Virus record (IMG/VR): IMGVR_UViG_3300047557_004483
Coordinates: 1 to 64,000 of that record
Reading direction: 5' to 3' (one strand)
Source: a virus
Lineage: Duplodnaviria > Heunggongvirae > Uroviricota > Caudoviricetes
DNA length: 64,000 bases
Each line of letters starts with the position of its first letter. The first letter of the stretch is position 1. This document shows, one piece after another, positions 1,172 through 52,684 of this stretch. Below the pieces are notes generated by a model, which saw nothing but the letters and a program-made list of their open reading frames with translations, did no database searches and was not told the DNA's origin. The position numbers and the translations under genes are program-made.

Positions 1172-1525
1172 TTAAACGTCAGGTGCGTTAGGAAACTTCG
1201 GGTCATCTGATATAACAATATTCTGATTATCATAACATTTAAAATATGCCATAGTTTTATCGTGCTTATGTAAAACCCTTCCGTTAGGATAGAAATGATA
1301 ATCTCTCCAAAAATCTGTTCCCATTTTAAATTTCTGACCTTTCGGACTAACCATTTCTTTAAAATCACTCAAACAAGGGAATTTAGCAAATTCATCTTGT
1401 TTTTGACTCATACTCTTTGTAGGAAGATTCATCTTATCAACCATTTTAATCATATCTTGTTCGTTCAAAACCCTACTTACTATTCGAGATAAATCACGTT
1501 CTGTTAATCTTACTTTCTTTTTCAT
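1172..1525 (-). CDS. small hypothetical protein, family-B leader MKKKVRLTERDLSRIVSRVLNEQ
   Basis: ATG at 1523-1525. N-terminal 23 aa are near-identical to 1564..2001, 2059..2460 and 35361..35669. Confidence 0.6.
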   Translation of the reverse strand: MKKKVRLTERDLSRIVSRVLNEQDMIKMVDKMNLPTKSMSQKQDEFAKFPCLSDFKEMVSPKGQKFKMGTDFWRDYHFYPNGRVLHKHDKTMAYFKCYDNQNIVISDDPKFPNAPDV

Positions 1526-1563
1526 AGTATTTTTATAATAAATATATTTTTGGAACGTTTTGG

Positions 1564-2001
1564 TTACCTAAGTTCTCCACCTCTGAGAACCCTTGCATTT
1601 ATTCCAAACTTTTTATTTCCTGAAGTAAACAGAAGTGAATCCCCCGTCCAATTTTGACGTTCCATTCCCTGTTTTAATGAAACCACCTTACCTGGTACTT
1701 GTTTCTGACTTTTCAATATATCATTCAAAGACTCCATCCCCAAAGACACATTCCCGAAGTGGTCTGTTTGGTCCATCGGTGTTACGTTCCTCACAACATA
1801 TTTGTTCGGTCCAAAACTTACAACAATTCTATTGTTAATTTTACTTAACACACATGAACCACCAGAGTTTTTAACCAACCCCGTAAGTTCATCGATATTA
1901 ATTTCTTTCAATTCATCCAATAACCCCATCCCCTGTTCATTGATTACTTTATTAACCAAACGAACCAACTCAGTCTCTGTCAATCTTACAACCTTTTTCA
2001 T
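1564..2001 (-). CDS. small hypothetical protein, family-B leader MKKVVRLTETELVRLVNKVINEQ
   Basis: ATG at 1999-2001. The leader is shared with neighbouring genes; the C-terminal parts are unrelated. Confidence 0.6.
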   Translation of the reverse strand: MKKVVRLTETELVRLVNKVINEQGMGLLDELKEINIDELTGLVKNSGGSCVLSKINNRIVVSFGPNKYVVRNVTPMDQTDHFGNVSLGMESLNDILKSQKQVPGKVVSLKQGMERQNWTGDSLLFTSGNKKFGINARVLRGGELR

Positions 2002-2007
2002 ATTTTT

Positions 2008-2048
2008 AATTTTACATGAAAACCCCCACTTAAAATTGGAAGGGGGGC
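2008..2048 (-). terminator. hairpin CCCCC-n14-GGGGG(G) between genes, probable terminator
   Basis: ccccc at 2023-2027 pairs with ggggg at 2042-2047; a TTTTC run follows on the minus strand. Confidence 0.4.
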
Positions 2049-2058
2049 AAACTTCAAT

Positions 2059-2460
2059 TTATTTCATCTTTCCCTTTATACAAGAATATAAATCCCCAAG
2101 TTGAGATGAAGTTTGTTTTAACGAACTAATACATGGACCACTTTGAAAGTTTGATGTCCCACCACACTCTTTTGGAAATTGAAACTTTGTTTGTTGAATA
2201 CATGCAGAAATCACAGGAACACTATCCTTATTCTTGAAAAGAAAATATGCAACCTTACCCATCATTACAGGAGGGAGGTTTCCCAATACCATTTCAATAG
2301 GAAATAATACCATCTTCTTGAGAACCTGTTTCGCATTTGGTAAATCAAAATTTATTGAAGATAATTTATCCATAAATGATGATTGTTTCTCCTGTTCAAT
2401 TAAAACCCTTTTAACCAACTTCGATAAATCCGACTCAGTTAATCTTACAACCTTTTTCAT
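2059..2460 (-). CDS. small Cys-containing hypothetical protein, family-B leader MKKVVRLTESDLSKLVKRVLIEQ
   Basis: ATG at 2458-2460. Conserved leader; 6 Cys in the C-terminal half. Confidence 0.6.
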   Translation of the reverse strand: MKKVVRLTESDLSKLVKRVLIEQEKQSSFMDKLSSINFDLPNAKQVLKKMVLFPIEMVLGNLPPVMMGKVAYFLFKNKDSVPVISACIQQTKFQFPKECGGTSNFQSGPCISSLKQTSSQLGDLYSCIKGKMK

Positions 2461-4513: not shown

Positions 4514-4658
4514 GATTCATACTATCCGCACTTGTCGTAGGGTTCCTATTCCTTTGGGGGTTACAAAACATCCCCGACTTTATTGGATATATAATTGTGG
4601 GGACCGTAGTAATTCTATTAGTAAGAGAAATAAATAAAAAGTAATATGAGAAAGTTTC

Positions 4659-4973
4659 TTAAAGCAGTTTTCCTTGGGTATCTCCTGATGTGGGTATGGT
4701 CCCTGTTTCAGAATAGGAACCGATAAGTTGTTGACACCAAGCAACTAAGTCCTTGGGGGTTGCACTCTCCCCACCATAAACGTATAGTCCCTCGACTTTA
4801 GCTTCCACACATGCCCATCCACTCTGTCGGATGGGTTTTGTGTTCCACCCCTTCTTTGCTTTCTCGAAATATAATACCCCCACTTCTATTCCCTCTACCT
4901 GTAATACTACTCTCACTCGGTCCTCAGTAAGTGACTCTATCGTTGGGGTTACAATGTCTTTCCATGTCTTCAT
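4659..4973 (-). CDS. hypothetical protein
   Basis: ORF only. Confidence 0.45.
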   Translation of the reverse strand: MKTWKDIVTPTIESLTEDRVRVVLQVEGIEVGVLYFEKAKKGWNTKPIRQSGWACVEAKVEGLYVYGGESATPKDLVAWCQQLIGSYSETGTIPTSGDTQGKLL

Positions 4974-5697
4974 GTCATAATGGTATTACGGAACATATAA
5001 AAATAAATAATTATCCACACTGACATTGTGTCTGACGCTATTAAAAAAGGGGATGTGGATAACTTTTTATACGGAAAAATTTGGAATTGTCAGAATGTCA
5101 GGGGATGCGTTGAGATGGGGATAATCCCCTCGACACATTTTCCCCCACTTTCTCCCACCACTGATTCCCACTTTTTACCACCGATATTGTGTTATAGATA
5201 GTGTCAGGACCACTTTTTCCCCTCTGCAGATATCAGGAGGACCATATTTTTACTATATCTATTTCCCAGATAAAAAAGGATAATATAGTGTAGTAGCGGG
5301 GGAGTGAACGAAGTGAACCTAAGATAGTATAAAATACCCCTTCAACGACCGAAGGGATAGGTTTTAGATGACCCCTCGTATGGACCAAACGAGTCCCCTT
5401 CATAGTGGACAACTCATATGGTGGGAATATGTGGGAAGAGTATAATTTTGTCATTAGAACCACAAAGTGGTACCTTACACAAAAAATTACTCTTAAAGAA
5501 CTATATGGTTTACTCCTTATGATTATATCTGATTACATATAATTTAAACCGAAGGTATGTTTTTATATGTAATTGCATATAATCATCTAAACAAACCATT
5601 ATACCACCATCTCATTATGTCCTGTCATTAAATGGGGGACGAACTATATGGTGGGGGAGTTGTAAAGGATTACTCGACAACTTATATATTTATTATC

Positions 5698-6243
5698 ATG
5701 GAAGAATCATTAAAGAAATTAATTAGAAAAGTTATACTACCGAAATATTATTGGATTAAGGATTTTGATGTTCAGGTAAGGAAAAAAGATGATACAGGTG
5801 ATTCATATCGTGTTCTTTATTTTGTTGATAAAGATGTACATTATGAACGTAGTGTAATTGATAATATACAAAATGATACTAAAGAATTATATGATGTTCT
5901 CGGACTTCACAAATTTGATTTCTATGAAGGTGTTATGTTTTTTAGTTATCAATCACATAAAATGCAACAATCATTAGAAAAATTAATTGGAGAAGTTATA
6001 CTACCGAAATACCCTTGGATAAAGGATTTTGATGTTTTTGGAGAAGACGATTTCGGAGAGTATATATATAGTATTCACTATTACGTTGATTTTGATGAAT
6101 ATGAGAAAAAGGATAGAAATGAAATTACTCATATAAAATCTGAAAGTAAAAATTTATTTAATTCTCTTGAACCGAAAGAAAATGATTTTTTTAGAGATAT
6201 AGAATTTCTTAATGCTCGAGAATACAATTTGAACCCTAAATAA
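5698..6243 (+). CDS. hypothetical protein with two copies of an about 90-aa repeat (KLI(R/G)xVILPKY(Y/P)WIKDFDV..)
   Basis: Internal duplication. A third copy of the domain forms the next gene. Start moved to the ATG at 5698 (MEESLKK). Confidence 0.55.
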   Translation: MEESLKKLIRKVILPKYYWIKDFDVQVRKKDDTGDSYRVLYFVDKDVHYERSVIDNIQNDTKELYDVLGLHKFDFYEGVMFFSYQSHKMQQSLEKLIGEVILPKYPWIKDFDVFGEDDFGEYIYSIHYYVDFDEYEKKDRNEITHIKSESKNLFNSLEPKENDFFRDIEFLNAREYNLNPK

Positions 6244-6265
6244 CACATACGATTATAGACTGAGT

Positions 6266-6565
6266 ATGATGAAAGTTTTGTTAGATAAGTTGATAAGGAA
6301 ATTGATAATTGGTAAGTATCCTTTTATAGAGGACTTTGAAATAAAGGCAGATACTTTTAGACCCGTTATGGGTAAGTTAAAAAAGATTGGTGTTGAAAAA
6401 TATGTGGTCATTTATTATGTTACCCCTGACGAAGATGGAGATATTACTATAACAGAAGATTTTAAAGAAGTGGCTGAATTAACTGAGACTTGTTTTAATG
6501 CACTCGGACCTGAGCACTATCAGCGATTTGATGATGTGGAGTTTCATAGTACTGAAACTATATAA
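6266..6565 (+). CDS. hypothetical protein, single copy of the KLIRKLIIGKYPFIEDFEI repeat domain
   Basis: Paralogous to the two halves of 5698..6243. Both genes are followed by the same 15-nt post-stop element ACATACGATTATAGA. Confidence 0.55.
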   Translation: MMKVLLDKLIRKLIIGKYPFIEDFEIKADTFRPVMGKLKKIGVEKYVVIYYVTPDEDGDITITEDFKEVAELTETCFNALGPEHYQRFDDVEFHSTETI

Positions 6566-6572
6566 TACATAC

Positions 6573-6659
6573 GATTATAGAGTAAGGTGGTGAACGCAAG
6601 GACTTCCGAACGAAGTGAGGAATGTATTGTCCTGTAGTGAACTAACTTACTCTATAATC
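6573..6659. repeat. 14-bp perfect inverted repeat (GATTATAGAGTAAG / CTTACTCTATAATC) with a 59-nt GC-richer spacer; bidirectional terminator or small structured RNA between convergent genes
   Basis: Arms at 6573-6586 and 6646-6659. The spacer contains GAACGAAGTGA, shared with 5304-5318. Confidence 0.5.
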
Positions 6660-6678
6660 TCACATTTATAGATTGATA

Positions 6679-7089
6679 CTAACCTACTATCTTAATATTG
6701 ATACCCATATAACCGCAAAGACCTTTGATATGCTCTATCTTTTTTTCTGTAGAAGAATATGTAGAGACAAACCCTCCGTTATTAATTTGGAATTTTGATG
6801 AGTTATCATTATGTGACTCGGGAAATTCATTTTCTGTTTTTCGTAAAAAACAATTTAAGAATGGTTTCATTTCATCATAGGATAGAATCTTAGAAACATC
6901 CATTAAGAACTGTGTATAGTTTCTCGTGAAAATATCACTGTCGTATGTTTTTCCTAACGCTTGAAAATGTAGAATTGTTTTGGGAGACTTTTTTTGTTTT
7001 GTGGTAGTTTTTTGATTAACAAAATTAATTACCATGTTGATGAATTCATCTTGGTTATCCCTGATTGTTTTTTCTAATAGATTTGTCAT
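6679..7089 (-). CDS. hypothetical protein
   Basis: ORF only. Confidence 0.5.
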   Translation of the reverse strand: MTNLLEKTIRDNQDEFINMVINFVNQKTTTKQKKSPKTILHFQALGKTYDSDIFTRNYTQFLMDVSKILSYDEMKPFLNCFLRKTENEFPESHNDNSSKFQINNGGFVSTYSSTEKKIEHIKGLCGYMGINIKIVG

Positions 7090-7206
7090 TATAATTATGT
7101 TTCTACAAAAATAAAGATTATTAAAATATAAATCAATATCTAGCTAGTAAAATTTTTTTGTGGTATCGGAATTTATCGTAAATTTGTATTTCTAAATGAA
7201 ACTACC

Positions 7207-7713
7207 ATGGATTTAACAAACTACACAATCGAAGAACTTAAAGAATTAAAGAATACAATTTCTAATATGATTCATACACATGAAGATGGTTATTTGTATA
7301 TCTGCAAAGTACGTTCTTACGGACGTAATTGGGTAGAAAGTGATATTAAAAACAAACATACTCTTCAGGACCTTCTTTACAAATACGATGGTGAAGATGG
7401 TATTGTGGATGTTTATTCTACTAACCCCGACCTCGGTGAGATACATAACTATGGTGAATTGAACTATATCGTCTCTGAAGAAGACTATGAAAAGTGGAAC
7501 AGATATGAAGTTCTAAAACAAGTGATATCACAGATTGAAAAACAACTTGAGGATTGGGATAATCGTGATAATATACCATTCGGAGAAAGACCTAAGTTTT
7601 CGCCTATATACACTCGTGAAGACTTGTTGGAATATAAAAAGAAACTTGAGGAGTACGATATGTCTTTTATTCCTCCGAAACCTTTTGTTTCTTCCAATAT
7701 TTATAATACATGA
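7207..7713 (+). CDS. hypothetical protein
   Basis: ORF preceded by TAAATTTG (a TAnnTTTG -7-like element). Confidence 0.55.
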   Translation: MDLTNYTIEELKELKNTISNMIHTHEDGYLYICKVRSYGRNWVESDIKNKHTLQDLLYKYDGEDGIVDVYSTNPDLGEIHNYGELNYIVSEEDYEKWNRYEVLKQVISQIEKQLEDWDNRDNIPFGERPKFSPIYTREDLLEYKKKLEEYDMSFIPPKPFVSSNIYNT

Positions 7714-8162
7714 AATATATCATAACTGAACGACAATTAAATTTGATTAACGAAAACCCCATACAAGGTATACTATCTAAGATAATTAAAAGTAAACCTG
7801 TAACCTCAAATGTTGTCAAAGCAGTTTCTAGTAATGTTGTAAAGGTACCTCTCAAAAGTTTGATGAGACCGAATGGAGTAATAGGCACACAAGGTTTTAC
7901 CTCAGAATCGCTTCTCGATTTAATTAATCATATTTCAAAAGTCCAAAATATTAAATTACCAAAATATAACTCACTGAAAGAGTTAATTTCCCTTCTGTCA
8001 AAAAATCCGAAGGATAAAGAGAAAATAATTCAATATGTTTCTAAGGACCCTATCGTTTTACTCAAATTACCTGATAATACTTTCAAAATAAAAGACGGTA
8101 ACCACAGAGCTAATCTATTGAACCTTTTGGGTGTTGAGCAGGTCCCCTCCATTATAAAATAA
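7710..8162 (+). CDS. ParB-like nuclease-domain protein with family-A leader MKYIITERQLNLINENP
   Basis: C-terminal IKDGNHRANLLNLLGVEQVP matches the ParB/Srx DGxHR motif. Overlaps the previous gene by 4 nt (ATGA). Confidence 0.55.
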   Translation: MKYIITERQLNLINENPIQGILSKIIKSKPVTSNVVKAVSSNVVKVPLKSLMRPNGVIGTQGFTSESLLDLINHISKVQNIKLPKYNSLKELISLLSKNPKDKEKIIQYVSKDPIVLLKLPDNTFKIKDGNHRANLLNLLGVEQVPSIIK

Positions 8163-8166
8163 CAAA

Positions 8167-8559
8167 ATGAAATACATTATAAGTGAGAGACAATTTAATT
8201 TGATTAACGAAGAGTTGGATTTAAGTTCTCCATTTCTTAGAAGAAGAATTAATTCAATCGAGAAAATCATTCAAGACGAAATTTCGCAAATACATAAGGA
8301 TGGAGGTAGTGAATTCACTAACATAATCGAATTCATGAACATTGTCATTAATATCGTGGTGGATAGACTTTTTATGGAGACAGGTGGACAAGAGGGATTG
8401 GACGAAGAAGAATTGAAGGAATTCATCGAGGAGAATTATGGTGATTACATAATTTCTATGTTTCCACATGATTTGGAAGATGAGGATGATGAGTCCGAAG
8501 ATGATGAAGATTATGAGTTTGAAGATGATGAGTTCGAAGATGATGAAGATGACCTATAG
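8167..8559 (+). CDS. hypothetical protein with family-A leader MKYIISERQFNLINEE and poly-acidic C-terminal tail
   Basis: N-terminus near-identical to 7710. C-terminus DEDDESEDDEDYEFEDDEFEDDEDDL. Confidence 0.55.
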   Translation: MKYIISERQFNLINEELDLSSPFLRRRINSIEKIIQDEISQIHKDGGSEFTNIIEFMNIVINIVVDRLFMETGGQEGLDEEELKEFIEENYGDYIISMFPHDLEDEDDESEDDEDYEFEDDEFEDDEDDL

Positions 8560-8565
8560 TAATCT

Positions 8566-9180
8566 TTATACCCATTTTTCACCCTCCCAATATTCTGCCC
8601 CATTTACTTCCAATTTGTAAGGAAAAAAATCTTCATAGGACTCGTAGATATATAAGAAGTTCTTTCCCTGTGATTTACCATACCCACTTAATAAAAGAAT
8701 CGCATCTTTTCCTATTGAAAATTTGGGCATATCTTGGGTAATAGCACTTTCTAAACCTAACAATGATTTTTCAAATTCTCTGAACCTAGTATAAGCAACA
8801 ACCCTATCTTGGTATTTGACTTCCATAACCTTGAGGTCATCAAAGGTAGAATTATTTGTATATGAACTTAACATGTCAAGTTGCTTTGACTGAATATAGT
8901 TCGTGAAGAAATAATCAACATCTTCCTTAACGTCTTTATATAGAAAGATTTGTATTTGTAATTGAGATAATATTTTTTTTCTTTTATATGATAAATTAAC
9001 TTTATCATTATTTATTCTACAACTTTTTGCCTGATACCAATAAAGTGGCGGCTGAATATTTGGTAAAAAACCAAGTTCTAAAAGTTCACATTCTTTTTCT
9101 CCCTCAGGAATGGCGAACGCCTCACAGAAAACCCTACCGTCCTTTATATGACCCTTGGAGTGGTCAAATATTATCTTCAT
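8566..9180 (-). CDS. hypothetical protein
   Basis: ORF only. Confidence 0.5.
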   Translation of the reverse strand: MKIIFDHSKGHIKDGRVFCEAFAIPEGEKECELLELGFLPNIQPPLYWYQAKSCRINNDKVNLSYKRKKILSQLQIQIFLYKDVKEDVDYFFTNYIQSKQLDMLSSYTNNSTFDDLKVMEVKYQDRVVAYTRFREFEKSLLGLESAITQDMPKFSIGKDAILLLSGYGKSQGKNFLYIYESYEDFFPYKLEVNGAEYWEGEKWV

Positions 9181-9877
9181 TATTGAATTTTTTATCTAAT
9201 CTGTCATACTCCTCTGAGCGTTCTCTATTGGATTCACCAGACTCTAAGTCAGTATGGTCGTAGTTGAAAACATCCGTATCAGGAGTTACCCACCTACTAT
9301 TCCTTTCTGCAGTCCACAGAGTTGTGTTATATTTCCTATTTATGACAATGTCCTGTTTCACGGTAAATGATGGGTCATGCATTATCAAACGATTGTTTGG
9401 TTGTATCGCAAAATTACCATTATCCATTTGGATGAAGTGTCCACACTTATGTTGAGATGGAAACTCACTTAATCCAAAATCAGTATCACTCATGTCATCA
9501 GAGCTGCCCCAATCTAAGGTAAATAAATAACGTCCTGAATATTGAACTCTTCTTCTCGACGTAAACTTACAAGTTTTGTTTTTCAAAATAGGAAATGCTG
9601 TAACTCCAACATGGTAGGTAAAGGAATCCCACAATACAAGTTCATCCAATTCTTGTTGTGGAGCATCTTCTTTCCAACAAAAAGCGTGGATAGGCATCCT
9701 CCACCAAATTCCACCATCTTCCATCATGAAATGGAACAAAGGTGCTTGAGCAGGTATTGATGACATTCCGAAAATATAACAAGGGAATTTTTTGTCAAAA
9801 GAGTCTTCTTGGTTTCTAAGGAAGTTTCCTCTGATGTATGCCTCTACAATTGGAATTGGAGTGTTTAAATATGACAT
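9164..9877 (-). CDS. hypothetical protein
   Basis: ORF only; 17-nt overlap with the downstream gene. Confidence 0.5.
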   Translation of the reverse strand: MSYLNTPIPIVEAYIRGNFLRNQEDSFDKKFPCYIFGMSSIPAQAPLFHFMMEDGGIWWRMPIHAFCWKEDAPQQELDELVLWDSFTYHVGVTAFPILKNKTCKFTSRRRVQYSGRYLFTLDWGSSDDMSDTDFGLSEFPSQHKCGHFIQMDNGNFAIQPNNRLIMHDPSFTVKQDIVINRKYNTTLWTAERNSRWVTPDTDVFNYDHTDLESGESNRERSEEYDRLDKKFNNEDNI

Positions 9878-9930
9878 GATATACTTTTGTGTAAAAATAC
9901 ATCATTTCGAGCAAATAGTAAAAAGATTAT

Positions 9931-10644
9931 TTATTTTACTACTCTGATTTTGAACTCTTCGAAAAATTCAGGATAACTTTCGATATAACCTTGTAATGTT
10001 TCGTCATCGTATTCAATATCTTCGGCATTCCAATACCAATAAAGGTTTTTGTCAGATTTGAAGCCATAATAGGTATGGTTGTCATATTGCTGTTTACAAA
10101 TATGGTCAGCATATTGGTGTTGACCTACAATTATGAATCCCGAGGTAATATCTTTAATTATATTGGATTCTCCGTAAGGTATATATCTATTATTTATCCA
10201 ATTTAACCTTTCGATTAATTTTTGATAAAACATATTTGCAGAACCCCATCTAACCGATGCAAAGAAAATTACACAGTCTGATTCAAAAAGTTCTTTACTT
10301 ATTTGCCAAAGTTCGTCGTCAGGATTATTTATAGATGCCCAACACCTATGGTAACCACTAGGATTTTTTTCTTTGTCTTCCAATAAAGCTTCTTTAATTC
10401 CACAGACATTTCCCTCCATTCTCGAAACATTACCTTCACAAGGATAAATTTTCAGTTTGGTCACATCTATTAGGGTAGAGTTATCTACATTTTTATTTAT
10501 TACTCTCGCTAAAATAGTTGATTTGGGTGTTTGAGTTTTAATTACTTCCGCACCTCTATTTGAACACGTAAGTAACAAAACTTTTTTATATTTTTGTAGT
10601 TGTTCGATTGTTTTTTTAAGTTTCGAATGATTACCCTCTTTCAT
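9931..10644 (-). CDS. hypothetical protein (possible flavodoxin-like fold: VLLLTCSNRG..)
   Basis: Weak resemblance to FMN-reductase-type N-termini. Confidence 0.45.
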   Translation of the reverse strand: MKEGNHSKLKKTIEQLQKYKKVLLLTCSNRGAEVIKTQTPKSTILARVINKNVDNSTLIDVTKLKIYPCEGNVSRMEGNVCGIKEALLEDKEKNPSGYHRCWASINNPDDELWQISKELFESDCVIFFASVRWGSANMFYQKLIERLNWINNRYIPYGESNIIKDITSGFIIVGQHQYADHICKQQYDNHTYYGFKSDKNLYWYWNAEDIEYDDETLQGYIESYPEFFEEFKIRVVK

Positions 10645-10662
10645 AATAAATAAATATAAACA

Positions 10663-11865
10663 TCACACAAATACTGACGGTATATCCGCCCATGATGTCG
10701 TGAACTTCTGAGACATAAACTCTTGTCTCATTTCCCACTTTTTCTCCGTGTTTGCTGGTGGTTGAACAAGTTGTATGGATGATGAAAATAGCGTACCTTG
10801 TTCTATAGACTCTGGCATTAGCTCATTAAAGATTATCCCACACTTTTTGTATTTCTTCTTATCAGAATATAGTTTCCTTAAATGTGGATATACTTGTGAC
10901 CATATCTCTTCCACATCTCTTGTTTGTCTTTGAAATGTTATTTGTTTGCTTGAATAGTGTTTCTCCCCCTTGTGTACATTTCCACATATGAATATGGTTG
11001 CTCTATTTGGTGATATCTCATTATCTATTAGTTTCTTTATACCACTCTTTATGTACGAATACATCGCTTCAGCTATTTGGTCAAACGAATCTATATCTTG
11101 TCCGAATGACCTTGTGGATGCAACATTTCTTTTTAACTTCGGGACCTTCTGAACAGGATGGCAATATTCCCCTAATAGTTCCATCTTTGTCTTTAACCCA
11201 TTCACATTCATTAACTTTCTTACAATTGCATCTGCCATCATAACAAACTGTCCCACACTATCTACTCCGAGCGAGTTTAACTTCTTTGTCCACTTTCTTC
11301 CTATTCCCCATACTTCATCTATTGGAATTGTGTAAAGTGAATTCCTAAAATTATGTAAAGACCAATATGAACATATTCCATTATATGTCGGTTGTTTCTT
11401 TGCAATATATGACGTTAGTTTTGCCAATGTTTTATTCGGACCTACACCTATTGACACAGGTATTCCCGTTAGTCTCTTAACTTCGTTTCTAATCAAATGT
11501 AACCTGTCTTCTAACTCATCATCAGGTATGTTTGAGAAGTCTACAAAACATTCATCTATGGAATATACTTCTACCTCGTTTGCATATTTCTTTATGGTTG
11601 TCATCACCCTGTCTGACATATCACCATATAAGTTGTAATTTGAACTGTATACACAGAACCTGTGCTCGTCCATGAAGTCTTTCCTCTGAAAGAATGGTTC
11701 TCCCATCTTTATCCCTAAATCTTTGGCTTCTTGTGAACGGGCAATAACACATCCGTCATTGTTGGATAATACAACGGTAGGTCTCCCTATGGATATTGGA
11801 TTGAATACTCTCTCACAACTTACATAGAAATTGTTGCAATCTACAATTCCGATTTTCTTGTTCAT
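10663..11865 (-). CDS. umuC: Y-family translesion DNA polymerase (UmuC/DinB-like)
   Basis: N-terminus IGIVDCNNFYVSCERVFNP..VVLSNNDGCV..AKDLGIKMG is the canonical Y-family palm; it lies downstream of a umuD-like gene, as in the umuDC operon. Confidence 0.85.
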   Translation of the reverse strand: MNKKIGIVDCNNFYVSCERVFNPISIGRPTVVLSNNDGCVIARSQEAKDLGIKMGEPFFQRKDFMDEHRFCVYSSNYNLYGDMSDRVMTTIKKYANEVEVYSIDECFVDFSNIPDDELEDRLHLIRNEVKRLTGIPVSIGVGPNKTLAKLTSYIAKKQPTYNGICSYWSLHNFRNSLYTIPIDEVWGIGRKWTKKLNSLGVDSVGQFVMMADAIVRKLMNVNGLKTKMELLGEYCHPVQKVPKLKRNVASTRSFGQDIDSFDQIAEAMYSYIKSGIKKLIDNEISPNRATIFICGNVHKGEKHYSSKQITFQRQTRDVEEIWSQVYPHLRKLYSDKKKYKKCGIIFNELMPESIEQGTLFSSSIQLVQPPANTEKKWEMRQEFMSQKFTTSWADIPSVFV

Positions 11866-12182
11866 TATAACTTATTTAATATCCATGAAACTCTTCCCCA
11901 CAGATTTTGTTGTCCTTCGTATCTTCTAATCTTGAAACAAACCTTATCTGTCAACACAACAAGGTCTCCCTCCACAGGGTCAATAGATTTGTCTATGACA
12001 AGAATATTCCCTTTCTTTACACCGAGGGAATCGGGACCCATATACCTAAAATAAAATGTGGTATGAACGTTTTCGATAATCAGTTCATTAAGGTCTAACC
12101 TCTTGTCTACATACGACTCCGCAGGTGAAGCAAATCCTGTTGTCCTTGACTTGATTTGAAGTTCCTTCTCTGTAGTATACAT
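11865..12182 (-). CDS. umuD: UmuD-like S24 peptidase (short, UmuD'-like N-terminus)
   Basis: GFASPAESYVDKRLDLNELI matches UmuD GFPSPAADYVEQRIDLNQLL; Ser (MGPDSL) and Lys (FKIRR) candidates are present. Only about 14 aa precede the GF, with T-G rather than C/A-G at the cleavage position. Confidence 0.75.
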   Translation of the reverse strand: MYTTEKELQIKSRTTGFASPAESYVDKRLDLNELIIENVHTTFYFRYMGPDSLGVKKGNILVIDKSIDPVEGDLVVLTDKVCFKIRRYEGQQNLWGRVSWILNKL

Positions 12183-12264: not shown

Positions 12265-13041
12265 ATGAAGACAATTAGACAATCACTGACTGAAATAGTT
12301 AACTTTGATTTTGTTAATGCATCACAAAAAGAAATTGAAAATATACTTCCGACCTTTGGAATGAACAATGAATACATTAGTGAAATACCTCCCATGTTCT
12401 CGAAATATATGGGATGGGGCATTAAATTTTGGCAATACCCAAACCAACTTAGTAAATTACTTTGTCATTTGAAAGGAAAGAAAATTAATTCATACTTAGA
12501 AATTGGTGTAAGGTATGGTGGTACATTTGTTTTAATAAACGAATTACTTAAAAGATATAATAACTACGTGGAATCTCATTGTGTCGATGTTATTCCTGCT
12601 TCTGAAATATTACACACCTATCAACATGAATTTGCAAGAGATAGGTTTTATTATCACCAAACCCCATCACACAGTTCTACTTTCTTTGATACACTTACTG
12701 GTGTTGACCAAATATCTGTCGCCATTACTACAAAAAAAATTGATTTAGTATTCATCGACGGATGCCACACCTATCCTTGTGTTAAACAAGATTATGTAAC
12801 CGCACTTATCTTAGGTGCAAAATACATTATCTTTCACGACATAAGTAACACTAACTCGGAAAGTACTAGATTGATTTGGAGTGAAGTCAAAAAAAATCAC
12901 AAGAAGACCTATGAATTTATTGACCAATATGAAGGTATGGACGCTAATTACTTAGGTATTGGACTTGTAGAAGTTTCACCTGAGGATGCAGTATTTCCGA
13001 TGTTCGAATCAAATTATCCAGGTGTCGAGTTGTCGTTGTAA
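12265..13041 (+). CDS. class I SAM-dependent O-methyltransferase, TylF/CmcI-like
   Basis: LEIGVRYGGT (motif I-like) and DLVFIDGCHTY (the D..H metal/acceptor motif of the macrocin-O-MT/CmcI family). Confidence 0.5.
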   Translation: MKTIRQSLTEIVNFDFVNASQKEIENILPTFGMNNEYISEIPPMFSKYMGWGIKFWQYPNQLSKLLCHLKGKKINSYLEIGVRYGGTFVLINELLKRYNNYVESHCVDVIPASEILHTYQHEFARDRFYYHQTPSHSSTFFDTLTGVDQISVAITTKKIDLVFIDGCHTYPCVKQDYVTALILGAKYIIFHDISNTNSESTRLIWSEVKKNHKKTYEFIDQYEGMDANYLGIGLVEVSPEDAVFPMFESNYPGVELSL

Positions 13042-14279
13042 TATTCTTCTATTTCCTCTGAGAAATTATCTTCGATGTATTTGGTTATATATGGGGCAAG
13101 TTTCTCCCTCATTTTCATTATTTCTTCATAGTTTTCCTCTCCTGAAGAAAGAGAAATTTCTCTAACAACATTGAAAATAATTCTTTCCATGTATTCGTCA
13201 TAACTATTAAATGACCATGGTGCCAACCATTCATAGGTATTTCTTATAAAATTAGGTAACATCTCAAACAATCTTCTTTTGAGATAAACAGGAATTACCG
13301 ATTCTGTAACTAAATCATTGTTTGTACCACAGTGAGGACAGATTGGTAAAGACTTTTTTCCTTTATGAATTGTTTGTGTAAACTTCTTTTTGCAGTTAAC
13401 ACACTTGACCCACTCCTCTCCTGATTTTTTTTCTTCCTTGATATTAATTTTGATTTTAACTTTGGTAACCTTTGGAGTTATACCTAAAAGTCTACAAACA
13501 GACAATCTTGTGTTTCCCGCAACTAAGTATGGTGGATGGTTGTCTGCGTATGCAACTATAGGTGTTTCAACTATTCCTCCATTTTTGAGCGGTTCCATCG
13601 AATGTTTAATTATCCTTTCCTCACTCCTACCCCATTGCCCATGTATAATATCGAACAAATCTTTATATGTTTCTATTGTCCAACTATCCGTATTTTCCAT
13701 CTTCGACCATTCTTCATCAGTTAATGATTTCACATCAGCCCTTTCATAAGCACTATGAATATCATCAATAAGTTTGTCTAATTGTTTATTTGAAAAATGC
13801 TCAAAGTTTACTTGAAGAACGTCGTCTTGTAACCAATTAAGAAAATGATTCATAAATTCGTTTTCTTCCGTTTGGAACTCAGGTTTGACCCATTCGATTT
13901 TTTTTTCTTCTGAATTTTCATTAAGATTATCTACGTTTTTTCTATTCAAAATTTTAATAGACCTCAAAATCTGTTCATATTTTTCTCGACTGAGACTGAA
14001 TTGACCCTCATTTGTCCAATATTGTATTGCTTCAGGTTTTGGATGTTTGATTGCATCGTAAACCCATTCTTGACCTTGTTCAGGATTTTTCAAGTTCCAT
14101 AATGTAACTATATTCGAATCCCCTTCCCAATTTGATGGAACTAATTCACCATTTACATGTGGTTCGGTGACCCACAAAACACCTTTGTTAACCAAATCAG
14201 AAAAATCAAATATTTCTCTTTCGGATTCACTTAAACCCATCATCTCTTTAATTCTTAATATGTTTTCTTGTAAGTTCAT
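13014..14279 (-). CDS. hypothetical protein with family-C leader MNLQENILRIKEMMGLSES; ParB-like (AGNTRLSVCRLLG) region and C-terminal CxxC..CxxC zinc ribbon
   Basis: Start set at the conserved ATG (14277-14279); the ORF-track upstream extension reads through the neighbour. Confidence 0.6.
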   Translation of the reverse strand: MNLQENILRIKEMMGLSESEREIFDFSDLVNKGVLWVTEPHVNGELVPSNWEGDSNIVTLWNLKNPEQGQEWVYDAIKHPKPEAIQYWTNEGQFSLSREKYEQILRSIKILNRKNVDNLNENSEEKKIEWVKPEFQTEENEFMNHFLNWLQDDVLQVNFEHFSNKQLDKLIDDIHSAYERADVKSLTDEEWSKMENTDSWTIETYKDLFDIIHGQWGRSEERIIKHSMEPLKNGGIVETPIVAYADNHPPYLVAGNTRLSVCRLLGITPKVTKVKIKINIKEEKKSGEEWVKCVNCKKKFTQTIHKGKKSLPICPHCGTNNDLVTESVIPVYLKRRLFEMLPNFIRNTYEWLAPWSFNSYDEYMERIIFNVVREISLSSGEENYEEIMKMREKLAPYITKYIEDNFSEEIEEYYNDNSTPG

Positions 14280-14280
14280 A

Positions 14281-15426
14281 TTATTTTTCACTTCGATAAA
14301 TAACTTTGAATCTTTGTTTTTCCTCAATAGGTAATTCCAACTTTTCGAACTTTTCATTTTCTACTTGGAATCTTTCTTCATCTTTGTATTTCCACTGACC
14401 ATAAAAAGAATAAACTTTACCAGTTGTGGTATCAACTACAGTATCTCCACCTCTCGGTTCTAACCCTTCATATTTTTTGATTTTATCTTCTATAGACATT
14501 TCAGGGTTTTCCTCTAAACTATCAAACCAATTCGTAAAATCTTCACCCAACTTTTCTTTTAATTCAGGTGATATTCGTACAGATTTTTTATCGGTAAATT
14601 TATTCGATACAAAATCATTAAATATTTTTTTAACATCTTCGTTAATGTTTTCATCTATAACCAACACATGTTGTTGTAACAATAAAGACATCAAATTATA
14701 ATCAGGGTTTGATAATAAATCTTGATATATCATTTTAATTTCCGCCGAACTCCCCATACCACTTGTAATGTATCCAAGTTTCCTAATCATCGCCAAATAA
14801 ATTAAAGTTCCTAATTTTTTTCCTCTTAATTTTTCGGGTACTCCTTTATAAAAATGAATCCTATTTTGCGAAGGTTCCAAGTTCACGTAAGTTGTTCTAT
14901 CTTTAACATCTAATTCTTTAGCACATTCGTAAGGAAATTTAATTCTATAAACCTTACCACCTTCCTGAGTAACACCATAAGCTCTTTCTAAAGATTTTTC
15001 ATCTTTAGCTACCAGTGGACCAATAATTTCGAAATTGGAGGGGTCACAATTCACAACTTCAGATTTTGGTTTTTGTTTTCCCCTCAAACCATAATAATCC
15101 GAAAATATTGAATACAGCAATGAGTTGAATTTTTTTGAACCATGGGATATCATATAGTTCAGGTATTTGTTGTCTAAATTTTGTAAATCTTTAGATAAAA
15201 CAGGTTTCTTTACAAATGGGTCTTTATCAATTACAACTGAGTTTTTGAATTTAACAAAATCACCATCAGATGATTGTAGTTTATCTTGTAATAAATTTGA
15301 AATCTCCTTCTTGTATTTAGGAAAATTTTTTATATTCATCATAACATAAGAATCTGATGGTACATCTAAGGTTTCATTGATACCCATCATTTCCTTAATC
15401 CTTTGTATGTTTTCTTGTAGGTTCAT
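14281..15426 (-). CDS. hypothetical protein with family-C leader MNLQENIQRIKEMMGINET
   Basis: Start at the conserved ATG (15424-15426). Confidence 0.6.
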   Translation of the reverse strand: MNLQENIQRIKEMMGINETLDVPSDSYVMMNIKNFPKYKKEISNLLQDKLQSSDGDFVKFKNSVVIDKDPFVKKPVLSKDLQNLDNKYLNYMISHGSKKFNSLLYSIFSDYYGLRGKQKPKSEVVNCDPSNFEIIGPLVAKDEKSLERAYGVTQEGGKVYRIKFPYECAKELDVKDRTTYVNLEPSQNRIHFYKGVPEKLRGKKLGTLIYLAMIRKLGYITSGMGSSAEIKMIYQDLLSNPDYNLMSLLLQQHVLVIDENINEDVKKIFNDFVSNKFTDKKSVRISPELKEKLGEDFTNWFDSLEENPEMSIEDKIKKYEGLEPRGGDTVVDTTTGKVYSFYGQWKYKDEERFQVENEKFEKLELPIEEKQRFKVIYRSEK

Positions 15427-15427
15427 A

Positions 15428-15904
15428 TTACTTTTTCTTTTTAACACAATTGGGGTATCTTTTACCGAACATTGTTTTCATTCCTTTCTGAGTATATCCT
15501 TTCCAACATCTCTCAGTAATTTCTGATTCGTTCTGTTCTTCTTTCATATCTGAATCTGACATATATTCGGAACAAGTTGTTTGGTAAATATCAATCAAAT
15601 ACTGACCAAAGAAAATTCTTGACATACTTCTCAAATAATCCATAACATCACTAATGTAGTCCTGCTCGAATATGTTTTCGTCCACATCATCCAATAATTT
15701 ATCAACTGCATAATCAATTACAGCGTCTGCATATTCATATCCATCCTCAAAATCATCACACAGAGTTGGATATTCTACTTCTGCTCTGAATATATATTCT
15801 TTCAGTGTCTCACGATTAGCTCTCCTTTTAATTGAGTTTGGAATAGTGGACTCAGTTATACCCATCATCTCTTTAATCCTATGTATGTTTTCTTGTAAGT
15901 TCAT
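15428..15904 (-). CDS. hypothetical acidic protein with family-C leader MNLQENIHRIKEMMGITEST
   Basis: Start at the conserved ATG (15902-15904). A divergent TATCTTTG-type promoter region lies upstream. Confidence 0.6.
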   Translation of the reverse strand: MNLQENIHRIKEMMGITESTIPNSIKRRANRETLKEYIFRAEVEYPTLCDDFEDGYEYADAVIDYAVDKLLDDVDENIFEQDYISDVMDYLRSMSRIFFGQYLIDIYQTTCSEYMSDSDMKEEQNESEITERCWKGYTQKGMKTMFGKRYPNCVKKKK

Positions 15905-15955
15905 ATTATGTCTATAAAGATAAATATCTTTGTATTTATTACTAAACAAAGCTAA

Positions 15956-31313: not shown

Positions 31314-32168
31314 TTAAATTATTTCTATCTGAACCGAGTCAATTCGTTTTATACTTAACTCAAAATATTCTTTAGAAATTTCACTACCGATAAATTTTCT
31401 TCCTGTAAGTATTGAAGCTTTAGCAGTAGTTCCACTTCCCATAAATGGGTCATAAATAAGTTCTTCAGGGTTCGACCAACTAAGAATATGGTCTTTCACT
31501 AGTTGTATTGGAAATATTGCAGGATGTTGATATGCTATTTCGTCTTCTTGTCCGTTTTTCGATGTCTTATATGTCCAAACATTATATCTTTGTCCGTACT
31601 CATCAATTATTTTCTTTTTCCTTTCAATCATACTTCCGTCAACCTGCCTTGATGTATTTTTTCCCCAACTACCGACTTGTCCTCCGTAGACGTTTTTCCT
31701 GTCTTTTATTGAATTAAAAGTTTTTGGTTTACCCTTAGAAAACACAAACATATATTCAAAAATCTGATGATACCTGTTTGAAGATGGATTTGAAAAATTA
31801 TTCTTCATGTAAATCATAGTATCATGGATATTGAATCCAATTTCTTTGAAGAAAAGAGCCTGTCTGAATGAAGTGCCAGTTTCACTCCCTTTTTCCGTTC
31901 CATCTCCAACGACCCATACAACAACCCCGCCTTGTTTAGTGGTTCGATAAAGTTCCTTTGCAATATTTTCGAAATCAAATGAATAACCATTGAATTCGGT
32001 TTTTATACCTGAAATATGATTATTGTAAGTTCTTAAATCATCATATGGTGGTGAAGTTATTGTTACGTCAATAGTATTATCAGCAATTTTACCTAAGGTT
32101 GTAAGACAATTTTCTTGATATATTTTATTAAATTGAATCATAAATTTCGTAAAATTTTTTTGCTGCAA
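31314..32168 (-). CDS. DNA methyltransferase, beta-class N4-cytosine/N6-adenine (SPPY)
   Basis: ITSPPYDDLRTY (motif IV) is N-terminal and DPFMGSGTTAKAS (motif I, FxGxG) is C-terminal; this is the beta-class motif order. Confidence 0.8.
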   Translation of the reverse strand: MQQKNFTKFMIQFNKIYQENCLTTLGKIADNTIDVTITSPPYDDLRTYNNHISGIKTEFNGYSFDFENIAKELYRTTKQGGVVVWVVGDGTEKGSETGTSFRQALFFKEIGFNIHDTMIYMKNNFSNPSSNRYHQIFEYMFVFSKGKPKTFNSIKDRKNVYGGQVGSWGKNTSRQVDGSMIERKKKIIDEYGQRYNVWTYKTSKNGQEDEIAYQHPAIFPIQLVKDHILSWSNPEELIYDPFMGSGTTAKASILTGRKFIGSEISKEYFELSIKRIDSVQIEII

Positions 32169-33600: not shown

Positions 33601-33626
33601 CCAAATTTTATTAGAACTTTTTTTTG

Positions 33627-33698
33627 TTGCGTGAGTAAGAATCGAACTTACGACCTAAAGGTTATGAGCCTTCCGAGCTACCGCTGCTCTATCACGCG
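33627..33698 (-). tRNA. tRNA with CAT anticodon (Met/fMet, or Ile2 if lysidinylated)
   Basis: Manual fold: acceptor stem 2-7/66-71, D-stem GAGC/GCTC, anticodon stem GAAGG/CCTTT, loop CTCATAA, T-arm GTAAG-TTCGATT-CTTAC. A C1·A72 mismatch and an A11:U24 pair are initiator-like. No CCA is encoded. Confidence 0.8.
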
Positions 33699-37232: not shown

Positions 37233-38096
37233 CTATTGACCCTCTTTTAAATCCAATTCCAATTGTTTCTTCTTATCTATGAAACCCTGAACTCTTTTCT
37301 TAGCTATTTCACAATAGTTTTCACTCAGTTCAATCCCTACCCATCTTCTGTCTAAGATTTCCGCAGCAACCAAACTAGTTCCACTACCAGCAAACGGGTC
37401 AAGTATCAAATCATTTTTATATGAGAGTATTTTGATTGCTTTCGTTGGAATATCCATTGAGAATGTTGCCTTGGTAAGTGACTTTGTATCTGCGAAGTAA
37501 TCCCACTGACCGAAGACCAACTCCATAAATTCTTTCTTACTTTCGTCCGTATAGACCATTTTTTTCTTTGAGGTGCCATCCTCATTCTCAATTAAGGTTT
37601 CTTCTCCTTTCCATTGTGGTTCACCTTTAACCTTCTTAATATGATTGTTTTTGTAAGCTAAAATTATACACTCTTTGGGATTATAAATGTAAGGAGATGA
37701 TGGCGACATCCACGACCCCCATGCCGTAGTCTTGCTTCTATGTGGAGAATTTTCTTCTAAATCCACAATTCCGAAGAATTTGAAACCAATACTTTGCATG
37801 ATTGACCATAGTTCTGCCGCCATAAAGATTCGACCCCCTTTCGATTGTCTGTTAATCTCATAGGGTATATTGAGAGCTATTCTCCCATCGTTTTTTAATA
37901 CTTTATAGGCTTCTGTTAACCAACTCTTTGAAAACTTTTTATATTCTTCAAAATCAATATCATCATCATGTGTGTCGTAATCAATTCCAACTCCATAGGG
38001 TGGTGAGGTAACAATTAAATCAATAGAATTCTCAGGAATGTCTTTCATAACTTCAATACAATCCCCATTCAGTATTTTACCAACGTATTTTTCCAT
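37233..38096 (-). CDS. DNA methyltransferase, beta-class N4C/N6A (SPPY)
   Basis: IVTSPPYGVGIDYD N-terminal and LDPFAGSGTSLVAA C-terminal. The ORF-track start is TTG; the ATG (MEKYVGK) is at 38094-38096. Confidence 0.8.
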   Translation of the reverse strand: MEKYVGKILNGDCIEVMKDIPENSIDLIVTSPPYGVGIDYDTHDDDIDFEEYKKFSKSWLTEAYKVLKNDGRIALNIPYEINRQSKGGRIFMAAELWSIMQSIGFKFFGIVDLEENSPHRSKTTAWGSWMSPSSPYIYNPKECIILAYKNNHIKKVKGEPQWKGEETLIENEDGTSKKKMVYTDESKKEFMELVFGQWDYFADTKSLTKATFSMDIPTKAIKILSYKNDLILDPFAGSGTSLVAAEILDRRWVGIELSENYCEIAKKRVQGFIDKKKQLELDLKEGQ

Positions 38097-38121
38097 AAAC
38101 AAAATATAAAAAATTTTTTGA

Positions 38122-43872: not shown

Positions 43873-44907
43873 ATGTCAACTTGGAAAGATTATATTGAAG
43901 AATTCAACTCAGGAGATACAGACTTTTTAGGAAACTTTGGAGATGATATTGGTCTGTTCGTAGATTTAATAACTCAGAAAGGATTACTTAAATACTTGAA
44001 CGTTAATGCAAGTATGGAACCTGAAGTTGAGAATAAAGTTGTGTTGGCCTTTTATGAACATCACATGCCAAGTTATATAGAATTTTTACAAGAGAATTTG
44101 AGTGATGTAGAATTTGAAAATGGAGTGTTTTATTTTGTCGGTGACCCTTCAGATTTATCTACTCTTTTTGATGAAGGTAGAAATACCTTGCAGAAAAAAA
44201 CTGTAGAAAAAATTTTGAGTGGTGAAGGTTTAGACTTTGAATTTTTTGACTACACAACAGACAACGTTTATTCCGACGTTGTTGAAGAATTGAATATTGT
44301 AAATTTGCAATCCTTATATGAAGCCGTTCTTTACTTTTCCAAAGACGTTCAAATAGAACCAAGTACAGAACTTTTAGAATTGATTGCTGAAGAACAAGGT
44401 CACCCTGATTTTGTAATCATAGACAAAAACAATGTTGAAAGAATTGTCGATGACAGAGAAACTTTCGAATCACTTCTTAATGATGAATTATCTGATTTGA
44501 AGGGTAATCTCATAAACCTTCATCATTGGGCTTACAATTCAGCATATGAAGAAGAAGTTTACGAGGAAGTTTGGAATCAGCTTGATAAGTTTTTTGTCAC
44601 TGACCAAAAGAAATGGGTTTCAGTACCAATGTATACAGGACCTGCTGGTTCACAAAAGATTGCAAGTACTATAGAAAGAATGAAATTACCAATAAGAAAT
44701 TTACCCGAAATAATAAATGATTATCTAAGATGGAATGTGGAAGCTACATATCCAGAATCAGTTAGGTATTATGGTAACTACTCAGCAATATTGACATGGG
44801 TTCTCGACGAAAACCGTGATTATTCAAAGGTATATCCCCCTGATTTTCCTGATAGTTCTAAAGTTGATAAAAACATCAACGAAATGTTCAACGATTATAT
44901 ATACTAA
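43873..44907 (+). CDS. hypothetical protein
   Basis: Clean ORF converging on the fibre genes. Confidence 0.55.
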
Positions 44908-52364: not shown

Positions 52365-52365
52365 T

Positions 52366-52683: not shown

Positions 52684-52684
52684 A

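Follow-up and report, generated by a model that had tools for sequence, protein, structure and literature searches.

The window analysed here, a 64,000-nucleotide (nt) stretch covering positions 1 to 64,000 of the Caudoviricetes record IMGVR_UViG_3300047557_004483 in IMG/VR, carries three consecutive minus-strand genes whose products share the N-terminal leader MNLQENI[LQH]RIKEMMG[LI][SNT]E[ST] (Table 1). The original prediction, made from the letters of the window, was of a common 19-residue leader on three adjacent genes with unrelated bodies. Both parts are borne out: the leader is present in all three open reading frame (ORF) translations, and blastp comparison of the bodies past residue 20 gave no match better than E = 0.2. 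The 21-nt gene start ATGAACTTACAAGAAAACATA occurs three times in the window at one mismatch or fewer, against 0 expected from 100 shuffles. Gene junctions in the array read TAA-T-ATG, and no terminator or sigma-70-type promoter rises above chance in its interior, so the three genes make up one operon.

The proteins behind the three leaders, hereafter cargo, differ in how much of them can be recognized. Segments of large modular cyanomyovirus proteins show homology to both the body and the tail of the 158-residue protein. Its C-terminal module, CW.GY..KG.K..FGK.(Y/V)PNCV(K/P), recurs in the related loci L001, L002, L019 (5924-6607) and L059 (12789-14588), and is common to large modular T4-like cyanophage proteins and to lysine-rich modular genes beside the head genes of the lineage; the lysine-rich genes also carry ...YPSAYANG(W/F)AAK...GGGW(K/R)K and WFKEKWVDVS...KCRP modules. 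The 381-residue protein belongs to a family of 179 members, nearly all of which keep the leader, and a Foldseek search of its model against the PDB returned no whole-chain match. The 421-residue protein is a mosaic whose modules recur in other leader proteins (for example, database protein P0027). Its earlier description as ParB-like plus zinc ribbon stands for the zinc ribbon, with a weak Zn_ribbon_8 match, and less directly for ParB: ParB_N (PF02195) was not matched in the protein by Pfam at E <= 0.01, and a PDB sequence search gave no match, but a precomputed PF02195 domain is present in the homologue P0286 (51% identity, 98% coverage) and likewise in P0292 and P0294.

Table 1. Features of the leader array and of other shared N-termini in the window.
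Feature	Position	Strand	Remark
Promoter-like motif ATATTTATC	15919..15927	-	14 nt before the first ATG of the array; member of [GA]TATTTAT[ACT]
Leader copy 1, codons 1-19, MNLQENIHRIKEMMGITES	15848..15904	-	Start of the 158-residue gene, first in the array
158-residue cargo gene	15428..15904	-	Leader, acidic helical body and basic C-terminal CWKGY...PNCVKKKK tail
C-terminal module CWKGYTQKGMKTMFGKRYPNCVKKKK	15431..15508	-	Separate portable module; also in other leader-bearing and in leaderless proteins
Leader copy 2, MNLQENIQRIKEMMGINET	15370..15426	-	Start of the 381-residue gene
381-residue cargo gene	14281..15426	-	Confidently folded body (AlphaFold2 model)
Leader copy 3, MNLQENILRIKEMMGLSES	14223..14279	-	Start of the 421-residue gene
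421-residue cargo gene	13014..14279	-	Leader, N-domain, putative ParB-like region, CxxC...CxxC zinc ribbon, C-terminal domain
Zinc-ribbon module, residues 292-320, ...KCVNCKKKFTQTIHKGKKSLPICPHCG...	13320..13406	-	Pfam Zn_ribbon_8, weak, E = 0.0029
Second leader class, MKK(V/K)VRLTE(S/T/R)(D/E)L..(I/L)V.(R/K)V(L/I).E|Q (MKKVVRLTESDL..V.RV..E)	1172..2460	-	Three consecutive genes, starts 1525, 2001, 2460
Third leader class, MKYII(T/S)ERQ(L/F)NLINE	7710..8559	+	Two consecutive genes, starts 7710, 8167
Further third-class members, M(K/R)(Y/I)II(T/S)E.Q...L	starts 426-, 3173-, 15956+, 16685-		Shared N-terminus
Leaderless homologue, 237 residues	9931..10644	-	52-54% identical to MNLQEN-tagged cargo of L003, L012 and L019

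The target of selection is the leader peptide, not its DNA. Conserved DNA had been placed at about -25 to +45 of each ATG; the upstream side of that interval was wrong, and similarity spans the ATG to about +57. Among the three window copies, invariant columns number 38 of 45 over +1..+45, 45 of 57 over +1..+57 and 3 of 18 over +58..+75; upstream, over -30..-1, there are just 7 of 30, and only the TAAT before the ATG is conserved. The conserved columns being confined in this way, the block is entirely coding, and the top-strand string quoted in the original prediction is the reverse complement of +1..+41. For codon analysis, leader copies were collected with nhmmer by nucleotide similarity alone from about 1.3 Mb of related DNA, which gave 79 distinct 57-mers. 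Nonsynonymous and synonymous differences per site over codons 2-15 were pN = 0.10 and pS = 0.68 (pN/pS = 0.15), with synonymous sites near saturation, and codon 8 and codons 16-19 were near neutral (0.74-0.80). Information content upstream of the ATG was about 0 across the leader copies of related loci. Use of the same codon at conserved residues was 0.65 within a locus and 0.61 between loci (p = 0.16). Gene conversion as the source of the DNA identity was rejected, codon identity within loci being no higher than between them; leader DNA is near identical because a conserved peptide combined with AT-rich codon bias produces such identity. Saturated synonymous sites, a low pN/pS and unconserved upstream DNA together rule out the mobile promoter or 5′ untranslated region (UTR) cassette that had been raised as an alternative. 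A T4-type PeSL-like promoter/stem-loop element was also discarded, as upstream DNA is without conservation and conservation is at the peptide level instead.

The leader is portable across a large set of unrelated proteins. A profile of the N-termini matched short metagenome proteins with unrelated continuations, and a degenerate DNA pattern found 34 IMG/VR loci, many of them in contigs of 200-295 kb. Samples with such contigs are freshwater ones (for example, IMG 3300031787, 3300027621 and 3300044825). Related loci hold 85 leader copies, distributed over 58 distinct proteins; the 49 bodies that are complete (IMG/VR and metagenome) form 30 clusters unrelated to one another. When 1.84 billion representative proteins were scanned exhaustively with HMMER, 544 leader clusters were obtained at E <= 1e-3, almost all matched from residue 1. 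In this database set, 65 long bodies form 41 unrelated cargo clusters, and the leader lies inside the first 13 residues in 140 of the 148 proteins with a recognizable leader. Tagged genes occur in tandem runs of two to five (such as the three genes of L003 and the five each of L038 and L041), and the tagged neighbours of the conserved 381-residue gene differ among the window, L130 and L132. Loss of the leader in homologues from related phages, suggested earlier as the mark of a by-product, is not the pattern observed: homologues retain it.

Cargo proteins are 100-480 residues long, and Pfam and PHROGs searches of 20 of them left almost all as ORFans. Recognizable cargo modules are ParB-like, zinc-ribbon, P-loop kinase and C39-like peptidase domains and the basic CWKGY...PNCVKK tail. 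One database protein, P0312, combines a leader remnant and a zinc ribbon with a Peptidase_C39/C70-like papain-fold domain and is thus a tagged cysteine-peptidase cargo. Amino-acid variants of the leader co-vary inside genomes (0.83 versus 0.77, p = 0.0005, among related sequences) with no extra synonymous similarity; this modest co-variation fits a genome-specific partner.

A further leader class in the same genome had also been predicted, and other shared N-termini in the window confirm it (Table 1). Leader classes are interchangeable on one cargo, and this is seen for both homologous and zinc-ribbon cargo. The third class (MKIIITESQ-type) replaces the MNLQEN leader on homologous cargo in L017 (-8690) versus L038 (+11065), which are 80% identical, and in a second pair, window 3173- versus L012 (-870). 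MRQLIRKILHE-type starts, which head many zinc-ribbon proteins, also exchange with the MNLQEN leader on the same cargo, and one zinc-ribbon cargo module stands directly behind three leader classes in different proteins. The leaderless homologue at 9931..10644, which has its own ATATTTATT motif 4 nt upstream, indicates that the leader is optional for the cargo body; a truncated leader is also found on homologous cargo. Met-less internal copies of the leader lie between the modules of the fused database proteins P0034, P0018, P0060, P0092, P0104 and P0149, so leader function does not depend on a start-codon position, and these two-module proteins may be polyproteins for cutting in the prohead.

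Several minor observations concern the same N-termini. Written as MKK(V/I)(V/I)RLTE(S/T)(D/E)L.R(I/L)V.RV(I/L).E|Q, the second class is found in L124 (11128, 11769, 13809), L017 and L010, and it heads numerous genes of related loci. A sister class, MNLQE(S/T/H)IRR(I/V)LREE..., recovered among nhmmer matches in related loci, has the same first 5-7 codons as the MNLQEN leader and then a ..ILRE ending; the 58-residue window ORF at 57271-57444 (-), with the start MINEQIIRRIIHQYLEE, is placed beside it. Not every third-class-like N-terminus is a tag, since that of the pterin-4a-carbinolamine dehydratase (17389+) is native to the fold, with a Pfam match from residue 6. A free-standing 16-codon ORF, MNLQENIQRLKEMMDN followed by a stop, has two copies in L007 (8259-8309 and 10111-10161); each is followed by about 45 nt and then a membrane-protein gene, both belong to a longer direct repeat at the contig end, and they may represent a recombination scar or a mini-gene. 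M(E/Q)(E/Q)SL(K/E)KLI..VILPKY.WIKD, which occurs twice in frame in one 203-residue ORF (5698, 5962) and again at the next gene start (6269; window 5632-6565, +), resembles a repeated domain more than a leader.

The leader ends in a motif of the kind cut by T4-type head proteases. Of 54 distinct leaders, 43 terminate at residue 18 or 19 in (L/I)-x-E (INE, ITE, LTE, LSE and so on) versus a 2.8% background, a difference whose p-value overstates independence because leader copies are related; the motif is retained while L/I, x and register vary. All three window copies have it (LSE, INE, ITE), and other leader classes likewise end in (L/I/V)-x-E. T4 N-termini with the same motif are those of gp24 (..LRE), gp67 (LIE), gp68 (IPE) and gp22 (IAE). 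Replacement of the Glu by Asp in T4 prevents processing yet leaves targeting intact. Among major capsid proteins (MCPs) of the lineage, 49 of 51 distinct sequences read ..YENQAS(Y/F)LINE|A(A/S/T) at the position that matches the T4 gp23 cleavage site when aligned by eye; at the sequence level, the end motif of the leader matches this putative maturation junction, LINE|A. In cargo bodies, the observed/expected ratio of (L/I)-x-E is 0.91 versus 1.18 in other ORFs, which is weak evidence of depletion.

Structure prediction places the motif outside the folded part of the protein. An AlphaFold2 model of the 381-residue family (49 sequences) has a predicted local distance difference test (pLDDT) score of 85.6 and a confident body; its leader helix, residues 3-13, is detached (pLDDT 52-61), and G-I-N-E (15-18) falls below 50. 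A helix is predicted for residues 3-13 of leader copy 1 as well. The L-Q-E and I-K-E sites originally put forward for cleavage both lie inside the predicted helix, and the model makes (L/I)-x-E after the Gly, within residues 16-19 of a predicted disordered tether, the likely site.

Relatives of the window encode a T4-type head. In L019 and L013, leader genes and a gene for a gp23-like MCP are separated by 1-2 kb. Of more than 600 loci with MCP relatives, 80 were examined, and one of these, L059, is on the same 286,785-bp contig, IMGVR_UViG_3300031787_000001, as the leader-array locus L033. Genes in L059 follow T4 order: TerL, a portal gene (Portal_T4, 257 bits), two small core candidates of 250 and 141 residues, the protease gene at 7922-8602 (Peptidase_S77, 80.6 bits against a cut-off of 27), a scaffold of very acidic composition and the MCP gene (Gp23, 248 bits), with portal to MCP spanning 4571-11740. 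The prohead protease and scaffold that the original prediction proposed to look for are thus present in related genomes, and were not found in the window's own genome. The window is linked to this head-module lineage by synteny and by 25 ORFs (30-80% identity) shared with leader and head loci, including UmuDC, and some of its homologues stand beside the MCP gene in L045.

Deposited phages and cellular genomes gave little by comparison of the leader itself. Searches of deposited phages by tblastn with 20-39-residue leader queries (MNLQEN and other classes) returned nothing meaningful; a 28-residue T4 capsid-targeting sequence (CTS), an approximate IP-type sequence, worked as a control query and matched only Tevenvirinae-type phages. 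Among 50,697 deposited phages searched for DNA relatives, only the C-terminal CWKGY module was matched (cyanomyoviruses). The leader pattern had 0 matches in 185,579 GTDB representative genomes, which therefore offer no host clue; a hint of Bacteroidota hosts, such as Flavobacterium, comes from the relatives of the MCP. No description of the leader motifs was found in the searchable literature, with keyword matches only to work on T4, phiKZ and SPN3US.

The promoter-like motif ahead of the array belongs to a set found throughout the lineage. Counted over the 60 nt ahead of each gene, [GA]TATTTAT[ACT] occurs at 85% of portal genes, 98% of genes for the protease, 48% of the leader genes that head an array and 8% of the leader genes inside one, versus 2.4% of random 60-mers, a distribution consistent with co-expression of leader arrays and structural genes. 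It lies upstream of TerL, portal, protease and scaffold in L059. In the window it stands before most operons, those of the fibres and of every leader class among them. There are 25 window sites (for example, 15927-, 15932+, 51310-, 43860+ and 30933-), and in most operons 3-30 nt separate the motif from the start codon, often with a terminator hairpin immediately ahead of the motif; so small a distance implies that 5′ UTRs are very short or absent. [GA]TATTTAT[ACT] is the reverse complement of the T4 late-promoter core TATAAATA, yet lies on the coding strand.

T4 offers the closest precedent. Its CTS propeptides are 10-20 residues long, suffice for packaging, are removed by gp21 and form the only conserved part of the hyperdiverse internal proteins (PMC3012670, PMC9026906, PMC5694885); gp21 cuts after (L/I)-x-E, and the propeptides target proteins to the scaffolding core (PMC9026906, PMC5694885). 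We propose, at somewhat better than even odds (a probability of roughly 0.55), that the leader acts as a portable N-terminal propeptide of 19 residues, which would target proteins to the capsid as the T4 CTS does and be removed by the head protease. The three genes would be transcribed as one operon from the TATTTAT-type promoter common to the lineage. Residues 3-13 would form a short amphipathic helix, with L3, I7, I10 and M14 on a heptad-like hydrophobic face and Gly15 as a cap, and this helix would dock to the scaffolding core of an assembling T4-type prohead and so enclose the cargo. An S77 (gp21-type) prohead protease would then cut (L/I)-x-E after the Gly, in the flexible tether, and mature cargo would be released in the head and later ejected into the host with the DNA. 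Because packaging would need the tag alone, cargo genes could be freely exchanged, giving rise to hypervariable tandem arrays. Docking to the core, cleavage, presence in the virion and ejection are steps that we infer; on this reading the tagged arrays would be a likely arsenal of ejected effectors.

Capsid targeting was already the favoured reading of the original prediction. What sustains it is the protease, scaffold and MCP of the lineage, the (L/I)-x-E ending, the portability of the tag and the hypervariable arrays; the head module itself was found in related genomes and not in the window's own. The depositors' annotation of an S-SCSM1 homologue of the 158-residue protein as 'virion protein' gives weaker support. 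Several observations weigh on the other side. The window and about 20 kb of flanking DNA contain accessory genes and no head or protease module, and the 381-residue family is found on 3 IMG/VR contigs and at none of the 80 MCP loci. This is an uncultured lineage, and its nearest MCP relatives among deposited phages (Flavobacterium phage 'immuto', Microcystis phage Mel-JY01, two uncultured phages of 484-595 kb and Rhodothermus phage RM378) reach only about 43% identity over the C-terminal half. Direct comparison of the leader with the T4 CTS reveals no sequence similarity, and about 20% of leaders lack the terminal (L/I)-x-E. Tagged genes are numerous, at least about 12 in 64 kb over all classes, a number that to our knowledge exceeds what any characterized phage packages by CTS. 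Some cargo resemble ordinary cytoplasmic enzymes, such as the P-loop kinase, and leaderless orthologues of tagged cargo exist. The enrichment and depletion of the motif and the co-variation of leader variants are statistics on related, non-independent sequences, and TATTTAT was rejected as a head-specific (late) marker, since it precedes most window operons and does not discriminate.

The main rival is that the leader is a docking tag for another partner, be it another virion site, an assembly or compartment that the phage builds inside the cell, or a hub or chaperone, with (L/I)-x-E incidental; we regard this as possible but doubtful. A selected, portable and interchangeable amphipathic helix on a tether would fit such a role equally well, the co-variation within genomes points to one genome-specific partner without naming it, a DnaJ-like protein is encoded in the window, and many cargo are enzyme-like, unlike classical internal proteins. 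Such docking leaves unexplained, however, why at least three classes end in (L/I)-x-E and match the MCP junction, why internal copies sit exactly between fused modules and why the motif is depleted in cargo bodies, and no candidate partner was found. A broader tentative idea, which we hold to be about as improbable, is that the leader classes (MNLQEN..MMG, MKKVVRLTESDL.., MKIIITESQ.. and M.QLIRKILxE..) form a multi-address sorting code for a very large, fast-evolving protein set, with more than 500 cargo clusters in one class alone. The destination would be the capsid, with an ejected arsenal of unprecedented size, or would differ by class in place or assembly stage and might even lie outside the capsid; the leaders would then belong to an undescribed phage protein-sorting system readable from sequence.

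The remaining readings have less in their favour or were rejected. A tag that acts as an N-terminal degron or adaptor, recognized by a protease/unfoldase for timed removal or by a chaperone for folding, is unlikely: a related locus does encode a match to the 'ATP-dependent protease' PHROG (E = 3.4e-241), the tag is predicted to be exposed and flexible and orthologues manage without it, but a conserved (L/I)-x-E boundary is nothing that a degron requires, neither internal linker copies nor interchangeable classes with the same ending would be expected of one, and it is hard to explain why more than 500 cargo families should be selected for degradation. That the block serves as DNA-level recombination homology or a gene-start cassette, with the peptide as a by-product, is more improbable again. 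Its appeal is that arrays are cassette-like and turn over between relatives, that the 16-codon mini-ORFs and the truncated leader resemble recombination scars and that about 57 nt at 82-88% identity could serve homologous exchange; against it stand the pN/pS of 0.15 with saturated synonymous sites, codon use that does not differ within versus between loci (p = 0.16), the unconserved DNA upstream of the ATG and the persistence of Met-less internal copies. Recombination at the leader probably follows from the tag being shared and is not what the tag is for. We give little credence to an enhancer of translation initiation or early elongation, that is, an optimal A-rich unstructured start on leaderless or short-UTR mRNA. 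The promoter-like motif often ends just 3-15 nt before the ATG and the first codons are A-rich, yet amino acids rather than nucleotides are selected, Met-less internal copies are conserved and most genes of the same genomes use other starts. Least credible of all is an export signal (Sec, Tat, lipoprotein or the double-glycine, C39-processed bacteriocin type), even though the leader is short, helical, N-terminal and ends near a Gly, and P0312 has a Peptidase_C39-like domain. Direct reading finds no hydrophobic core, with a charged or polar residue every 3-4 positions, and no twin-arginine motif, lipobox Cys or G-G/G-A/G-S pair, M-M-G being followed by L, I or V; the cargo, at 100-480 residues and in some cases confidently folded, are not small peptides. 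Double-glycine leaders have a hydrophobic -4/-7/-12/-15 pattern, which the MNLQEN leader does not fit.

Capsid targeting by a removable propeptide would be a mechanism of a class already known from the T4 CTS. T4 IPI/IPII/IPIII and Alt likewise bear a short N-terminal propeptide on unrelated proteins with an (L/I)-x-E end (Mullaney & Black 1996; reviewed in PMC3012670, PMC9026906), the lineage and T4 both have a gp21/S77 protease, a scaffolding core and a gp23-type capsid, and in both the cargo loci are hypervariable with only the tag conserved and common to adjacent genes (PMC3012670). MKTYQEFIAE (T4 CTS) and MNLQENIxRIKEMMGxxxE share no similarity, so the leader is an analogue and not a homologue. 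It is about twice as long, with a predicted Gly-capped helix and tether, and comes from another, uncultured lineage. Its repertoire is also far larger, at hundreds of cargo clusters; each genome has several leader classes that can replace one another, and the leader recurs as an internal linker. What would be new, on this evidence, is a longer non-homologous leader, several classes, use as a linker and hundreds of cargo families.

Three other systems invite comparison. The inner-body and ejection proteins of phiKZ, 201phi2-1 and SPN3US also belong to giant phages, whose gp21-related protease recognizes a short motif and cleaves after its Glu (PMC5694885, PMC10052503); the propeptides of these proteins are thought to target the prohead, and in the paralogues gp53 and gp54 the first 15 residues are identical. 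Those propeptides are mostly longer than 100 residues, use an (A/S/G)-x-E motif and are common only to paralogues, whereas here a 19-residue tag is found on unrelated cargo and the head genes are nearer to T4 (Gp23, Portal_T4, Peptidase_S77). Secondary receptor-binding proteins of Klebsiella phages resemble the leader proteins in having a conserved N-terminal docking peptide, exchangeable C-terminal modules and a common virion partner (PMC13352976, PMC6872550). Their cargo are tailspikes or depolymerases outside the tail, whereas leader cargo are small enzymes, DNA-binding-like modules and ORFans without fibre features, and the tag ends in a protease motif. Encapsulin cargo-loading peptides are short, portable terminal peptides sufficient to load diverse cargo into an HK97-fold shell; unlike the leader, they are usually C-terminal, are not proteolysed and bind the shell and not a scaffold, and there is no sequence relationship.

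T4 internal proteins are anti-defence and host-takeover effectors, and ordinarily only virion proteomics of cultured phages brings such proteins to light. If the capsid-targeting proposal is true, one 19-residue motif would reveal from sequence the proteins packaged and injected by an uncultured giant-phage clade, and the 544 mostly ORFan clusters, with their ParB-like, zinc-ribbon, kinase and peptidase modules, would be a rich source of new effectors. Class interchange and internal linkers would extend the T4 CTS concept and provide new tags for engineered protein-delivering capsids. If the tag targets something else, it would be a new sorting signal.

The window as a whole is an accessory region. 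It encodes three DNA methyltransferases, three collagen-like fibres, glycosyltransferases, a UDP-galactopyranose mutase, a pterin dehydratase and UmuDC. The UmuC-like protein, a Y-family polymerase with IMS domains, directly adjoins the leader array together with its UmuD-like neighbour (10663-12182, -); UmuDC also lies beside the leader array in L038 and L041 (274-291-kb contigs; 64% and 57% identity). A Methyltransf_24 protein gene (12265-13041, +) is convergent with the 421-residue gene, with a 28-nt overlap at its end. The three DNA methyltransferase genes (31314-32168, 37233-38102 and 56393-57232, all -) comprise two paralogues and one of the Dam/D12 class. Three consecutive collagen-like (G-X-Y) tail-fibre genes encoding about 700 residues each, with T4 gp37-like C-terminal matches, occupy 44904-51286 (-), and their repeats give rise to many spurious overlapping ORFs. 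The window also encodes a DnaJ-like chaperone (57592-58509, -), an Hc1 histone-like protein (60093-60275, -), thioredoxin and glutaredoxin (52068-53005, -) and tRNA-Met (33626-33698, -), the protein assignments coming from precomputed Pfam matches. In L003, a TnpB/IS605 OrfB-type gene with a Cas12f-like TNB domain (5298-6515) lies 3.5 kb from the leader array of that locus.

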